Source: Escherichia coli
Lineage (GTDB): Bacteria; Pseudomonadota; Gammaproteobacteria; Enterobacterales; Enterobacteriaceae
DNA length: 64,000 bases
Direction: 5' to 3' (one strand)
NCBI RefSeq assembly: GCF_051903065.1
Contig: NZ_CP178438.1
The notes beneath the pieces are model-generated. The model was given only the letters and a program-made list of their open reading frames with translations, made no database searches and was not told where the DNA came from. Shown here piece by piece: positions 5,453 through 62,569 of the stretch. Within the stretch, counting starts at the first letter, position 1. Each line of letters begins with the position of its first letter. Position numbers and translations under genes: made by a program.

Positions 5453-7387
5453 TTACGCGACCGGGCGCGCAATAATGCTGCGGGTTTCCATGCGGACTTC
5501 GGCAATGGTGACGTCAATAACGTCAGTTACTTTATAAACCGTTTCACCTTTAATTTGTACGGTGCCGTTTTCCTGGCTGCAAACCAGTTCATCGCGCACA
5601 GCGTGTAAGAAAGGTGCCGGAATAAAGGCGATAGCGCCGTTATCAACCAAACGAACACGCATGCCGCCACGGCTGATATCGACAATTTCCGCTGCGAAAC
5701 GGGTGTCGGTCCCGGCTTTGTCTTTCAGGAAGCGTGCGTATAACCAGTCACCAACATCACGTTCTGCCATCCGGTTGAGACGGCGACGCTCGGCCATTTG
5801 GACAGTGATTTCATCCTGTGGACGCGTCGCAGTTTCACCTTTGATAACCGCTTTCAGCAGACGGTGGTTGATCATGTCGCCATATTTACGGATCGGCGAA
5901 GTCCAGGTGGCGTATGCCTCCAGACCGAGGCCAAAGTGAGGACCGGGTTCAGTGCTAATTTCAGCAAATGACTGGAAGCGACGAATGCGGCTGTCGAGGA
6001 AACCAGTTGGTTGCGCGTCCAGTTCACGACGCAGTTTGCAGAAACCGTCCAGCGTGAGCACTTCTTCGGCATCGACATGCAGACCGTGCGTTTTCAGCAA
6101 CGCTGCCAGCGCGTCGGCATTCGCCGGATCAAAGCCCATATGCACGTTATAGATGCCAAAACCGAGCTTATCGCGCAGTACGCGGGCCGCACAAATATTA
6201 GCGGCGATCATCGCTTCTTCGACGATACGGTTGGCAATGCGACGAGGCTCGGCGACGATATCCAGCACTTCACCTTTTTCACCGAGAATAAAGCGGTAAT
6301 CCGGGCGATCTTTAAACACCAGTGCGTGGTTATGACGCCACTCGCCGCGTCGTTGGCAAATTTGCGCTAGCAAACGGACTTGTTCGGCAATTGCTTCACT
6401 TTCAGGCTGCCAGTCACCGGTATTTTCCAGCCAGTCAGAAACCTGGTCATACACCAGCTTCGCTTTGGATTCGATGGTGGCGGCAAAGAATTCGATATTA
6501 TCTTCAATGGTGCCATCAGCGGAGAGCGTCATGCGGCATGCCAGTACCGGACGGACTTCATTGGCGCGCAGTGAGCAGAGATCGTCAGAAAGCTCGCGAG
6601 GAAGCATAGGGATGTTGAAGCCAGGCAGATAGTTGGTGAATGCGCGAATTTTCGCGGCTTTGTCCAGCTTGCTGCCTTCAGCAATCCACGCGGTTGGATC
6701 GGCAATCGCCACAATCAGCTGAAGTTTGTCATCCGGCAACGCCTTAGCGAAAAGGGCGTCATCCATATCTTCTGTGCTGGCACTGTCGATGGTGACAAAA
6801 TCCAGCGCGGTCAGATCTTCACGAACCAGACCTTCATCGAGCATTTCGGTAGCGACGCCGTCTGGTGCTTCTTTTTCCAGATTATGGCGCGCAAGTGTAA
6901 CCCACCACGGTACAAAGTGGTCGTCACCAAAAGTGATGTATTGTGTCAGTTCAGCATAGAAAGAACGATCGCCTTTCAGCGGATGACGGCGCATTTCGGC
7001 AACCGCCCAGTCGCCTTCTTTAAACTCGTGGTTCAGGCCACGGGCTGCGCGGCAAGGAATGGCGTCTTTTAAGAGTGGATGATCAGGAACGATGGCCAGA
7101 CGGTCATTTTTGCCCTGAACTTTACCCACGAAACGAGTCAGGAACGGTTCAACCAGTTCTTCTGGCTCTGCGGATTCACGTTCTTTTTCACTGTGGATCA
7201 CCGCGATAATTCGGTCGCCATGCATGACTTTTTTCATCTGCGGCGGCGGAATGAAATAACTTTTTTGCGCGTCGACTTCCAGGAAGCCAAAGCCTTTTTC
7301 TGTGGCTTTTACCACCCCTTCAGCGCGTGGCGTCTGGGAATGCAGTTGCTGTTTAAGCTGCGCTAGCAGCGGGTTGTCCTGAAACAT
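5453..7387 (-). CDS. rnb: Exoribonuclease II
   Basis: 644-aa ORF recognised as RNase II (RNB catalytic domain, C-terminal S1 domain). Confidence 0.9.
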
Positions 7388-23274: not shown

Positions 23275-24693
23275 CTATGCGTTTTTCAACATCCACTCAA
23301 TTTCTGTTTCTGTGATGAGGCGCTCAAACTGCAACAGCTCATCATTTTTACAGGCGTGATACACATGGCAAAACCGTTCGCCTAAATAGCGGCGCAGGTG
23401 ATCATTCTCGATAAACTCACCCAGGGCATCGCTCTGGCGAATCGGGAAGGGTAAGCCATCCTGTTCCAGCCCGTTGCCTTCGACTTCTTCCTGCAACGGC
23501 AGCTCGTTATCAAGACCGTGCAAAATACCGGCAAAAATCGCTGCCATCACCAGATATGGGTTGGCATCGGCACCCGCCACGCGATATTCCACGCGGTGAT
23601 TATGACGATCGCCGCATGGAATACGCAGGGCGACGGTACGGTTATTATGGCCCCACGACGCCTGCGTCGGTACATACATCCCTGGCTGGAAGCGGCGATA
23701 CGAGTTCACGTTTGGTGCCAGCAACGCCATTGATGACGGCATCAGGTCAATCATCCCGGCGAGCATCTTTTTCAGCAGCGGCGAATCTTCGCCTTCTGTG
23801 TCAGAAAGCACGTTCTCGCCACGATTATTTTGCATACTGATATGGATATGCATTCCGCTGCCCGCGTGCTCTTCATACGGCTTCGCCATAAAAGTGGCGT
23901 GCATCTTATGCTTTTCTGCCATCAGACGCACCAGGCGTTTTAGTGCCAGCGCATCATCGCAGGCTTCCAGCACGTTATCAGTATGGTAAAGGTTGATTTC
24001 AAACTGACCCGGCGAGGCCTCAGCGACCGCGCCATCTGCCGGAATCAGCTGTAACTGTGCCAGTTCATCAATATCATTGAGCACATCGGCGAAGTGGTTG
24101 AGGTTATCAACCGAGTAAACCTGGCTTTGTGTATTGCGGTCATCGGTGCCGGGTGCGCAGGGCGGTTGCAGATACCCTTCAGCGTCGCGCTGACGATCCA
24201 GTAAATAGAACTCCAGCTCTACCGCTACGACCGGGAACAATCCGCGCTGGCGCAGCTGCTGCCACAGGCGGTTAAGAACGTTCCGCGGCTCAACGTCAAA
24301 GGGAGCGCCATCTTCATCGACCATGGTCAGGAGCATCTGACCGATAAACTCTGGATCGGCGGCAGAAGGGGTTAAGGAACCGAGAACAGGAACACAGGTA
24401 CGATCCGGCTCGCCCATTTCCTGACCCAGACCCGCTTCTTCTACTACGTTGCCCAGAATATCCATTGCAAACACCGAGGCCGGGAAATAACACCCTTTCT
24501 CCAGCTTCTTCAGACTTGAAACAGGAATACGTTTTCCACGGAAGCAACCATTCAAATCGGTAAGTAAAACATCAACATATTGCGTATTCGGGTAGCGCTC
24601 CAGGTAGCGTTTCACTTCCTGCGTAAAGGCGCTACCCCGCCTCTCTTCTGACTGCTGAACAAAGTTCTCTACTTCAACGATATTGGTTTCCAT
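23275..24693 (-). CDS. puuA: Glutamate-putrescine ligase (glutamine-synthetase-like)
   Basis: ORF 23275..24771; start set at METNIVEVENF... (472 aa). Confidence 0.9.
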   Translation of the reverse strand: METNIVEVENFVQQSEERRGSAFTQEVKRYLERYPNTQYVDVLLTDLNGCFRGKRIPVSSLKKLEKGCYFPASVFAMDILGNVVEEAGLGQEMGEPDRTCVPVLGSLTPSAADPEFIGQMLLTMVDEDGAPFDVEPRNVLNRLWQQLRQRGLFPVVAVELEFYLLDRQRDAEGYLQPPCAPGTDDRNTQSQVYSVDNLNHFADVLNDIDELAQLQLIPADGAVAEASPGQFEINLYHTDNVLEACDDALALKRLVRLMAEKHKMHATFMAKPYEEHAGSGMHIHISMQNNRGENVLSDTEGEDSPLLKKMLAGMIDLMPSSMALLAPNVNSYRRFQPGMYVPTQASWGHNNRTVALRIPCGDRHNHRVEYRVAGADANPYLVMAAIFAGILHGLDNELPLQEEVEGNGLEQDGLPFPIRQSDALGEFIENDHLRRYLGERFCHVYHACKNDELLQFERLITETEIEWMLKNA

Positions 24694-24736
24694 GATTCTT
24701 CGCCTTTGGTTTGTTTTCCGCTCGTTATCAAAGCGT

Positions 24737-24923
24737 AAAATATAATGACCACCATTCGAATCTGTATGCAAACTAAATGTTTGTCAAATGTTAAATTGAG
24801 TTTGCAAAAAAGAAAACTCACTGCTAGATTGAAAAAATATTGAACAGAAAGGTCATTTAAACCGCAGTAATGGCGATAATTTAGTCCACTTTGTGAGATT
24901 GAGCATGGAAAATATAATGAACA
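24737..24923. promoter_or_regulatory. puuA/puuD divergent control region with three copies of an AAAATATAATGA(A/C)C-like motif (24737..24750, 24834..24846, 24909..24923)
   Basis: Motif copies read directly; the third overlaps the first codons of puuD; candidate PuuR operators. Confidence 0.5.
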
Positions 24924-25669
24924 ATCCGGTTATCGGTGTCGTAATGTGCAGGAACAGGCTTAAGGGTCATGCGACCCAGACTCTGCAAGAAAAGTACCTG
25001 AATGCCATCATCCACGCAGGCGGTTTGCCAATTGCGCTGCCACATGCGCTGGCGGAACCGTCGTTACTTGAACAACTTTTGCCGAAACTCGATGGCATTT
25101 ATCTTCCTGGTAGTCCCAGCAATGTGCAGCCGCACCTATATGGTGAAAACGGCGATGAGCCTGACGCCGATCCCGGGCGTGATCTTCTGAGCATGGCGTT
25201 AATTAATGCCGCACTCGAAAGGCGCATCCCCATTTTCGCCATCTGCCGGGGTTTACAGGAACTGGTGGTGGCAACCGGTGGTTCGTTGCATCGCAAGCTG
25301 TGCGAACAGCCTGAATTGCTGGAACATCGGGAAGATCCCGAACTGCCGGTGGAACAGCAATATGCACCGTCGCATGAAGTTCAGGTTGAAGAGGGGGGAT
25401 TACTGTCTGCGTTGTTACCTGAATGTAGCAACTTTTGGGTAAACTCTCTACATGGACAAGGGGCGAAGGTCGTTAGCCCACGGTTGCGTGTTGAAGCTCG
25501 CTCGCCGGATGGCTTAGTTGAGGCGGTTAGCGTCATCAATCATCCTTTTGCGCTGGGCGTACAGTGGCACCCGGAATGGAACAGTAGCGAGTACGCGCTT
25601 TCGCGTATATTGTTCGAGGGCTTTATCACCGCTTGTCAGCACCATATCGCTGAAAAACAGCGACTCTGA
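24905..25669 (+). CDS. puuD: Gamma-glutamyl-GABA hydrolase
   Basis: ORF 24893..25669; start set at MENIMNNPVIG... (254 aa). Confidence 0.9.
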   Translation: MENIMNNPVIGVVMCRNRLKGHATQTLQEKYLNAIIHAGGLPIALPHALAEPSLLEQLLPKLDGIYLPGSPSNVQPHLYGENGDEPDADPGRDLLSMALINAALERRIPIFAICRGLQELVVATGGSLHRKLCEQPELLEHREDPELPVEQQYAPSHEVQVEEGGLLSALLPECSNFWVNSLHGQGAKVVSPRLRVEARSPDGLVEAVSVINHPFALGVQWHPEWNSSEYALSRILFEGFITACQHHIAEKQRL

Positions 25670-25695: not shown

Positions 25696-26253
25696 ATGAG
25701 TGATGAGGGACTGGCGCCAGGAAAACGCTTGTCGGAAATCCGCCAGCAGCAGGGGCTTTCACAACGTCGTGCCGCCGAACTCTCCGGGCTGACTCACAGT
25801 GCTATCAGTACGATAGAACAAGATAAAGTCAGCCCTGCCATCAGTACGCTGCAAAAGCTGCTGAAGGTGTATGGTCTGTCACTCTCGGAATTCTTTTCCG
25901 AGCCGGAAAAACCTGATGAGCCGCAGGTCGTCATTAATCAGGACGATTTAATTGAGATGGGCAGTCAGGGTGTGTCAATGAAGCTGGTTCATAACGGTAA
26001 CCCGAATCGCACGCTGGCGATGATCTTTGAAACGTACCAGCCGGGCACAACCACTGGGGAAAGAATTAAGCATCAGGGTGAGGAAATAGGCACTGTACTG
26101 GAAGGTGAAATTGTTCTGACGATTAATGGTCAGGATTACCACCTCGTCGCGGGGCAAAGTTATGCCATTAATACCGGCATCCCGCACAGTTTCAGTAATA
26201 CATCGGCAGGTATTTGCCGAATTATTAGCGCCCATACGCCCACCACGTTTTAA
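25696..26253 (+). CDS. puuR: HTH-XRE/cupin repressor of the puu genes
   Basis: 185-aa ORF with N-terminal HTH (LSQRRAAELSGLTHSAISTIEQ) and C-terminal cupin. Confidence 0.9.
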   Translation: MSDEGLAPGKRLSEIRQQQGLSQRRAAELSGLTHSAISTIEQDKVSPAISTLQKLLKVYGLSLSEFFSEPEKPDEPQVVINQDDLIEMGSQGVSMKLVHNGNPNRTLAMIFETYQPGTTTGERIKHQGEEIGTVLEGEIVLTINGQDYHLVAGQSYAINTGIPHSFSNTSAGICRIISAHTPTTF

Positions 26254-37772: not shown

Positions 37773-38601
37773 ACGCACACTCAGTCGCATCGGTTTTTAC
37801 TGCGGGCTGGCGCTGTTTCTCATCATCACGCTGTTTCCGTTTTTTGTGATGCTGATGACCTCGTTCAAGAGCGCAAAAGAGGCGATCTCGCTGCATCCTA
37901 CGCTGCTGCCACAGCAGTGGACGCTGGAGCATTACGTCGACATTTTTAACCCGATGATTTTCCCGTTTGTCGACTACTTCCGTAACAGCATGGTGGTGTC
38001 GGTGGTTTCATCCGTGGTGGTGGTATTTCTCGGTATTCTCGGGGCTTACGCGCTTTCTCGCCTGCGCTTTAAAGGTCGGATGACCATCAACGCCAGCTTT
38101 TACACGGTGTACATGTTCTCCGGCATTTTGCTGGTGGTGCCGCTGTTCAAAATTATCACCGCACTTGGCATTTACGACACCGAGATGGCGCTGATCATTA
38201 CCATGGTGACGCAAACTCTGCCCACCGCCGTGTTTATGCTGAAAAGTTACTTCGACACCATCCCTGATGAGATCGAAGAAGCGGCGATGATGGATGGCCT
38301 CAACCGTCTGCAAATCATCTTCCGTATCACCGTGCCCCTGGCGATGTCCGGGCTGATATCGGTGTTCGTCTACTGCTTTATGGTGGCGTGGAACGACTAT
38401 CTGTTTGCGTCGATTTTCCTCTCCAGCGCCAGCAATTTCACCTTACCGGTGGGCCTGAACGCGCTGTTCAGTACGCCTGATTACATCTGGGGACGGATGA
38501 TGGCGGCCTCGCTGGTGACCGCATTGCCGGTGGTGATTATGTATGCGCTTTCGGAACGTTTTATTAAGAGTGGTTTGACCGCCGGTGGCGTGAAGGGCTA
38601 A
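37759..38601 (+). CDS. ycjP: ABC transporter permease
   Basis: 280-aa polytopic membrane ORF. Confidence 0.85.
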   Translation: MATNKRTLSRIGFYCGLALFLIITLFPFFVMLMTSFKSAKEAISLHPTLLPQQWTLEHYVDIFNPMIFPFVDYFRNSMVVSVVSSVVVVFLGILGAYALSRLRFKGRMTINASFYTVYMFSGILLVVPLFKIITALGIYDTEMALIITMVTQTLPTAVFMLKSYFDTIPDEIEEAAMMDGLNRLQIIFRITVPLAMSGLISVFVYCFMVAWNDYLFASIFLSSASNFTLPVGLNALFSTPDYIWGRMMAASLVTALPVVIMYALSERFIKSGLTAGGVKG

Positions 38602-61537: not shown

Positions 61538-62569
61538 TTAGCGGCCCTGTTCCGGCGGTGTAATGTTATCCATATACAGCGTCTGGCTGGGGAAGGCAAA
61601 GTCCGCGCCGTGTGACTGTACAATATCGATAATCTTCAAATAAACGTCTTGCTGTGCAGCAAGCCACTCAGCCCATACCGTGGTTTTGGTAAAGCAATAA
61701 ACCATAATATTCAATGACGAGTCAGCAAACTGGTTGAAATAAACCAGTAAGGTTTGTCGCTGGTCGATGGCCGGGTGATTTTTCAGCATCTCACGTACGG
61801 CTTCGACGATAACGCCCACTTTTGCCGCATCCTCATAACGTAAACCAATGGTCGTGGTAATGCGGCGGTTGGTCATTCGTCCTGGGTTTTCTACGCTGAT
61901 CGACGAAAACAGCGAGTTCGGTACGTACAATGGACGATTATCAAAGGTCGTAATTTTGGTAATTCGCCAGCCAATTTCCGCTACTGTACCTTCGATATTT
62001 CTGTCCGGTGAACGGATCCAGTCGCCAATACTGAAAGGACGGTCGAAATAGAGCATGATCCCGGAAAAGAAATTACTCAGAATATCTTTACCGGCCATAC
62101 CGACAGCCAGACCACCAATACCACCAAAGGTCAGCAAGCCAGAAAGGCTCATGCCGAAATGTTCGCCATAAAGCAGAACAAGCACCACAATAATGGTGAT
62201 TTTGATAATGCGCGACATAATCCGCGCACTGGTGATATCGCGACCTTTTTTAATCTGCTGTTTTTCAAACTGATTAATCAGCAGAAATAGCTTAATCGTC
62301 AGAATAACCGCAATCAGGGACGTACAGATAAAATCGATAACGCCTGGGGTGATAAATTTGAGTTTATAGTTTTCTATAACATAATTAATAATGCTACCAA
62401 CAGCACTGATAATTATGGTGTAGATTAAAAATTGCACCGCATGGAATAAAAAACCTTTTCTTTTACGATTTCCGCGGCGAAACCAAAAGCTCATCAGAAT
62501 CAATGCTGCGCAGCTACCGAAAATAATGACCAGATTAAGCGCATTATTTGTAAACAGTTCAGCGATCAT
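61538..62569 (-). CDS. ynaI: MscS-family mechanosensitive channel
   Basis: 343-aa ORF with N-terminal TM helices and MscS-type C-terminal domain. Confidence 0.85.

Follow-up and report, generated by a model that had tools for sequence, protein, structure and literature searches.

Three related motifs in the puuA-puuD control region of Escherichia coli are very probably operators of the repressor PuuR

Three copies of a 15-nt motif, AAAATATAATGAACA, lie between and at the start of the divergent genes puuA and puuD of Escherichia coli, and they are very probably three of the four operators of PuuR, the putrescine-responsive XRE-HTH/cupin repressor. An earlier note on this DNA had reported the copies from the sequence. 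All three were present where it had placed them within the window (the whole 64,000-nucleotide stretch that was analysed), and an independent repeat search returned the same three 15-mers. Its count holds for these copies, but a fourth related and conserved site (O4, Table 1) had been overlooked. The system was known before: that PuuR represses puuA and puuD through sites in their spacer is textbook-level knowledge on E. coli, already exploited in putrescine biosensors. The finding rediscovers three operators out of the four published for PuuR, and is correct and ordinary. Compared with the K-12 operators curated in EcoCyc/RegulonDB, locus and regulator are the same, the number of sites is equal once O4 is counted, and nothing differs substantively. 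The additions made by this analysis are modest, namely the fourth site, an 18-bp frame, conserved spacing and a codon-level footprint at the puuD start.

The region under study is the puu (putrescine-utilisation) cluster of E. coli. The 1-kb stretch around the motifs, annotated as puuA and puuD, is 100% identical in several E. coli chromosomes and is present in 4,371 of 5,426 complete genomes. According to the annotation of a 100%-identical strain, puuP, ymjE and puuA stand on one side of the divergent region and puuD, puuR, puuC, puuB and puuE on the other. The puuA-puuD spacer covers 24694-24904 (211 bp), and the motifs sit in this divergent control region next to puuR. The puuD reading frame is opened by the ATG at 24905-24907 and closed by the stop at 25669, and its 254-residue product agrees with RefSeq. 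PuuR contains the Pfam domains HTH_3 (residues 13-66, E 6.4e-15) and Cupin_2 (residues 111-178, E 6.3e-19), that is, an N-terminal XRE-type HTH and a C-terminal cupin, the architecture of a family of dimeric local repressors. Window coordinates are converted to those of K-12 MG1655 by adding 1336215; around the spacer, 4 of 332 positions differ from MG1655 (24811, 24818, 24847 and 24862), none of them inside the motifs. The features discussed are collected in Table 1.

Table 1. Genes, operators, other control elements and published reporter fragments, in window coordinates
Feature	Coordinates	Strand	Description
puuA (glutamate-putrescine ligase)	23275-24693	-	Pfam Gln-synt_C, E 3e-106; RefSeq; divergent from puuD
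O1 (holds copy 1)	24734-24751	+	cGTaaAATATAATgaCCA; end 41 bp upstream of puuA start codon (24693)
Conserved block between O1 and O2	24764-24809		conservation 0.83; not a PuuR motif
puuD promoter, predicted	24802-24830	+	-35-like TTGCAA (24802-24807), 17-bp spacer, extended -10-like TGcTAGATT (24822-24830)
O2 (holds copy 2)	24829-24846	+	TTGaaAAAATATTgaACA; adjoins conserved extended -10-like TGcTAGATT; PWM rank 1 in 64 kb
O4 (block D), candidate fourth PuuR site	24871-24888	+	TGGcgATAATTTAgtCCA; puuD leader; arms TGG and CCA perfect
O3 (holds copy 3)	24906-24923	+	TGGaaAATATAATgaACA; covers puuD codons 1-7
puuD (gamma-glutamyl-GABA hydrolase)	24905-25669	+	Pfam Peptidase_C26, E 8e-70; RefSeq
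puuR (repressor)	25696-26253	+	second gene of puuDR transcription unit; PuuR in 100%-identical strain
PpuuDF	24694-24942		all four sites; PuuR ON/OFF 36.2 (PMC9951944; primers mapped here)
PpuuDS	24761-24904		O2 and O4; PuuR ON/OFF 6.9 (PMC9951944; primers mapped here)
PpuuAF	24694-24929		all four sites; PuuR ON/OFF 2.18 (PMC9951944; primers mapped here)
PpuuAS	24694-24817		O1 alone; PuuR ON/OFF 1.95 (PMC9951944; primers mapped here)

Copy 3 (24909-24923) matches AAAATATAATGAACA without mismatch, and copy 1 (24737-24750, AAAATATAATGACC) differs from it at one position when read as a 15-mer (24737-24751, AAAATATAATGACCA). Copy 2 (24834-24846, AAAATATTGAACA) is the motif less 2 nt and had been described as a spacer variant; its position stands, but the gap is unneeded if the copy is aligned two bases leftward, where 24832-24846 (AAAAAATATTGAACA) has two mismatches. 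At a threshold of two mismatches these three are the only matches on either strand of the 64-kb window, and the three observed compare with a mean of 0.005 in 2,000 dinucleotide-preserving shuffles of 24694-24930. Copies 1 and 3 have an exact 12-mer in common; 8 of the 2,000 shuffles yielded a repeat at least as long. The likeness of O2 to O3 extends leftward in a 19-nt repeat (D3; 24828-24846 versus 24905-24923, 84%). Inverted repeats of 7-8 nt (I2-I4) were at the level expected by chance for an A/T-rich region.

An 18-20 bp, partly palindromic sequence, TG(G/T)-N2-AATATAWT-N2-(C/A)CA, appears to describe the operator unit better, with the motif of the earlier note as its centre and right arm. 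In the 64-kb window, the three best matches to a position weight matrix (PWM) built from the four site blocks of every species are copies 2, 3 and 1, in that order. The matrix also matches the opposite strand with a shift of 3 nt (24906-24920 for copy 3 and 24734-24748 for copy 1), and the same pairs of matches are seen in Klebsiella, Citrobacter, Serratia, Erwinia and Hafnia, which suggests that partly dyad-symmetric operators of 18 bp would be the better description. The left arm of O3, TGG, is made up of bases 2-3 of the ATG and the first base of codon 2, and in most species O3 reads TGGGCAATATATTTGACA, with 13 of the 14 specified positions of the ideal dyad. O4 scores 12.6 with the PWM, the ninth best match in the window, and agrees poorly with the E. 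coli 15-mer (6/15).

The symmetry is partial, with 3-6 of 9 symmetric pairs in each majority sequence and a weak left arm in O2. When the idealised palindrome TGGNCAATATATTGNCCA was searched for in E. coli, O3 came first, O1 and O2 were level with two chance matches and O4 was among 18. It separates O1, O2 and O4 from background no better than the 15-mer does, and strong dyad symmetry is therefore not claimed. A dyad reading of the operators, with binding by a dimer, would nevertheless fit the XRE-cupin family. PWM matches outside the spacer (62518-62532, 38144-38158 and 18361-18375) lie inside open reading frames and were treated as chance; the highest of them, 62518-62532 (CGAAAATAATGACCA, 16.3 bits), is 37-51 nt inside the 5' end of the minus-strand frame 61538-62569. 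Directly after O2, GGTCATT (24851-24857) is a perfect inverted copy of the O1 arm AATGACC. This element, limited to E. coli and its closest relatives and not conserved elsewhere, might be an extra half-site or an alternative candidate to O4 as the published fourth site.

Conservation was assessed by scanning one genome per species with PuuD, which gave 79 loci. We used 41 Enterobacterales loci, from the genera Escherichia, Klebsiella, Raoultella, Citrobacter, Enterobacter, Pluralibacter, Cedecea, Buttiauxella, Yokenella, Franconibacter, Hafnia, Erwinia and Serratia. puuA is divergent from puuD in all 41, and puuR follows puuD in the 39 loci with enough sequence, with PuuR identities of 84-100%. 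All four sites and their spacing are kept alongside PuuR in the 41 loci. Measured as the mean majority-base frequency in a spacer alignment of 42 sequences, conservation was 0.95 for copy 1 (flanks 0.70-0.71), 0.92 for copy 2, 0.88 for copy 3, 0.86 for ATAATTTAGTCCA (24876-24888) in block D and 0.95 for CTGCTAGATTG, directly left of copy 2; the segments between conserved islands ranged from 0.57 to 0.71.

The distance from O1 to O2 is 95 bp in 37 of the 42 sequences, that from O2 to O4 is 41-42 bp and that from O4 to O3 is 34-35 bp; the length of the puuA leader is variable (53 to 88 bp). In E. coli, the O1-O2 (95 bp) and O2-O4 (42 bp) distances are near whole helical turns and the O4-O3 distance (35 bp) is not integral. 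Such fixed spacing is compatible with cooperative binding and does not prove it. The sole sizeable length change between operators among the 42 sequences is a 10-bp insertion, ATATTGAGCA, after the O2 equivalent of Buttiauxella sp. A111; it resembles the right half of O2 repeated in tandem, and its length is about one helical turn. Nine Serratia loci share a conserved insertion of ~25 bp, beginning GTCTGTGGTTCTCACACTTATTG, between the puuA start and O1, which lengthens the puuA leader and leaves the inter-operator spacing unaltered. Farther afield, the divergent puuA-puuD spacer of Halotalea alkalilenta contains a PuuR-like 18-mer, TGGAATATATATCTTACA, and a PuuR-like gene fragment lies at the end of that locus. 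The spacers of six loci of Kiloniella spp. (Alphaproteobacteria) contain two 18-mers, TGTTCGTTATATTGATCA and TGTTCAGAATAACGATCA, and no PuuR homologue was found within 3 kb in these loci.

The PuuR sites of the K-12 puuA-puuD region were reportedly footprinted with DNase I by Nemoto et al. in 2012. We take their 15-bp consensus to be AAAATATAATGAACA, identical to copy 3, and the 20-nt consensus of EcoCyc is presumably ATGGaCAATATATTGaCCAT, which resembles the 18-20 bp frame. Agreement with the footprint coordinates is judged here from this 15-bp consensus and from a paper citing that work. A full-text literature search for the string AAAATATAATGAACA found none, and literature searches on PuuR footprint, consensus, SELEX and transcription start returned secondary mentions only. 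PuuR site positions have been re-curated in EcoCyc ('relocalization'). In the citing paper, PuuR is said to bind the puuA and puuD promoter regions and the spacer to carry four PuuR DNA-binding motifs (Zhao et al. 2023, PMC9951944, citing Nemoto). PuuR leaves the DNA on sensing putrescine (PMC7901475).

We mapped the reporter primers of that study onto the window (Table 1); the distal PpuuAF primer falls at 24906-24929, over O3 (PMC9951944). With an ON/OFF ratio of 6.9 for the short puuD fragment versus 36.2 for the full one, fragments with O2 and O4 alone were repressed and O1 and O3 together added ~5-fold, as measured in a heterologous host (C. glutamicum) and with O1 and O3 removed jointly, so that O3 is not isolated. 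Shortening the puuD promoter or recoding the first puuD codons should be expected to cause partial loss of repression. The proposal that the copies are operators of the adjacent PuuR is thus supported by their position in the control region, their co-occurrence with PuuR in 41 species and the published reporters.

The promoter-like elements of puuD are conserved (GTTTGCA and CTGCTAGATT, about 0.95), and both are included in the active truncated promoter PpuuDS. Their positions place the predicted puuD start point (~24837) inside O2. On the puuA side, O1 would lie over -10-like hexamers of the puuA strand, or a short way downstream of a conserved minus-strand TTGACA (24787 to 24782). A stricter sigma-70 scan gave no promoter in the spacer, its sole match lying inside puuD and being due to the TATAAT of copy 3. 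This hexamer raises the question of whether the copies are themselves promoter elements (TATAAT -10 hexamers with A-rich upstream tracts) that recur through a sigma-70 consensus common to the two divergent promoters and an internal promoter-like sequence, rather than repressor sites, which we consider highly unlikely. Copies 1 and 3 do contain a perfect TATAAT, but copy 2 does not, and the conserved columns go beyond the hexamer (GnCCAC, ACA and the left arm). The scan calls TTGTGA-16-TATAAT (24891-24918, 10/12) over copy 3, where a promoter would start within puuD, past the start codon. The reverse complement of copy 1 has TATATT, a possible puuA -10, whereas on the plus strand there is no conserved -35 upstream of this copy. 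PuuR-dependent repression, moreover, maps to the fragments bearing the copies. An operator may overlap a -10 at O1, so a promoter role there is compatible with the sites being PuuR operators.

The conserved block between O1 and O2 contains, besides the perfect TTGACA on its minus strand, the ArcA-like direct repeats TGTTT (24778-24782) and TGTTA (24789-24793), 11 bp apart. They are surrounded by a 12-nt inverted repeat (I1), TGCAAACTAAAT and ATTGAGTTTGCA (24767-24778 and 24795-24806, 92% complementary). This block is probably an ArcA, and perhaps also FNR, control element of puuA and puuD. It is extremely unlikely that the three motifs are themselves sites of another regulator (ArcA, FNR, NtrC/sigma-54-related, IHF or Fis) and not of PuuR. 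They are A/T-rich, which nucleoid proteins such as IHF or Fis favour, but they are unlike the FNR consensus, TTGAT-N4-ATCAA. The absence of any further match with up to two mismatches in the 64 kb is expected of a local, single-target regulator and not of a global one, and the motif co-occurs with PuuR-encoding loci, including the related palindrome and PuuR-like fragment of Halotalea. ArcA directly represses puuA and puuDR (PMC3798270), and published descriptions place FNR and ArcA sites in the spacer; the ArcA-like repeats, however, occupy a conserved block of their own (24778-24793), separate from the motifs.

The third copy had been described as embedded in the first five codons of puuD. 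The overlap with the puuD start is confirmed, although the codons listed (ATG GAA AAT ATA ATG AAC) number six, and the motif extends from position 2 of codon 2 to position 1 of codon 7. Across species the N-terminus of PuuD varies (MENIMNN, MENIMYK, MGNIFDK, MGNIFNR and MVDIFDK) and the operator bases are retained, which confirms 24905 as the true start of puuD. Each of the 39 species examined (39 of 39) has the rare ATA at codon 4 (Ile4), a codon used at 10.8% of the other puuD Ile positions, and each has T as the last base of codon 3, against 47% elsewhere. The first base is invariably G in codon 2 and A in codon 7, and codon 6 is NAC throughout. These observations argue for constraint at the nucleotide level, that is, selection on the DNA sequence, inside codons 2-7. 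The use of AGA or AGG at Arg7 (15 of 15 species) was set aside as weak evidence of constraint, because AGR already makes up 21% of puuD Arg codons.

Might copy 3 be kept by the demands of translation initiation (rare codons and an A/T-rich 5' coding region free of structure), its resemblance to the other copies being incidental? A/T-rich N-termini with rare codons are a common feature of bacterial genes, and the region of copy 3 is A/T-rich, with its rare ATA fixed; at codon 4, ATA to ATT is the sole synonymous change that keeps the A/T content. A preference for A/T, however, does not account for the 12 nt that copy 3 shares exactly with copy 1. Nor does it predict the invariant G at +4 or the ACA over codons 6/7, kept though the encoded residues vary (E/G/V/D, N/Y/D and N/K/R), or the fixed 34-35 bp distance to O4. 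Zhao et al., moreover, placed the primer of their full-length puuA promoter over copy 3 (PMC9951944). We therefore regard an origin of copy 3 in translational constraint as very unlikely, and a PuuR operator at this position as the preferred reading.

Each operator of ~18 bp would most likely be bound by a PuuR dimer. O1 would cover the core promoter or the early transcribed region of puuA, and O2 the predicted start point of puuD; O4, in the puuD leader, and O3, across the puuD start codon, would lie downstream, in the transcribed region. At low putrescine, PuuR on this array would repress puuAP and puuDR, the two divergent units, the second of which includes puuR itself. Putrescine would bind the cupin domain and release PuuR. 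O3 and O4 may act as downstream roadblocks or as cooperative partners. As the earlier note had it, the third operator does span the translation start; its effect, however, would be on transcription and not on translation initiation or ribosome binding, because PuuR is a DNA-binding HTH protein.

A further reading, which we hold tentatively and think rather doubtful, is that the four operators form a phase-locked array on which one higher-order repression complex assembles by cooperativity or looping, with O3 old enough to dictate the first seven PuuD codons across the Enterobacterales. It is supported by the near-invariant spacing (95, 41-42 and 34-35 bp) and the +10 bp change of one lineage. 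The part played by O3 is supported by the fixed ATA, the constant G at +4 and the ACA over codons 6/7, which stays unchanged despite amino-acid drift.

In the lac (O1/O2/O3) and gal (OE/OI) systems, promoter-proximal operators are combined with auxiliary ones, lacO2 lying in lacZ and galOI in galE. The PuuR array is similar in having a promoter-proximal operator and auxiliaries, with O3 inside the first structural gene, puuD. Its spacing, too, is fixed, and its outer sites raise repression ~5-fold in the reporter (PMC9951944). This likeness concerns a possible mode of working, in which looping or tetramerisation of PuuR would be hypothetical, and not family membership.

By family, PuuR belongs with the XRE-cupin regulators, palindrome-binding dimers that repress neighbouring genes and bind core promoter regions (Trouillon et al. 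2021, PMC7901475). The Pseudomonas aeruginosa regulators PauR, PsdR and ErfA have the same HTH_3 and Cupin_2 architecture; like PuuR, the XRE-cupin repressors of this species act on adjacent metabolic genes, have sites beside their own gene and are released by small molecules (PMC7901475). PauR is the PuuR homologue controlling polyamine gamma-glutamylation genes; it acts on 29 genes at 12 locations, whereas PuuR apparently acts at one locus with four clustered operators (PMC7901475 for PauR). The binding consensus varies among family members (PMC7901475), and the PuuR sites are weakly symmetric.

Some minor observations were made at the same locus. No PuuR-like motif was found in the gap between puuA and puuP. 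The RefSeq gene ymjE (54 aa, minus strand) lies at 22962-23126 (positions 6663-6827 of locus L081), with its start in this gap, and runs over the 5' end of puuP. A mirror-image 8 nt is found at the two gene starts, TTTCCATG at 24687-24694 and CATGGAAA at 24904-24911, and both proteins begin Met-Glu; it is seen in the E. coli/Klebsiella clade only and is probably a coincidence. Finally, puuD codons 16 and 18 (24950-24958, AGG AAC AGG) are the rare AGG, a codon that accounts for 102 of the 550 puuD Arg codons of the species compared, an unusually high share.
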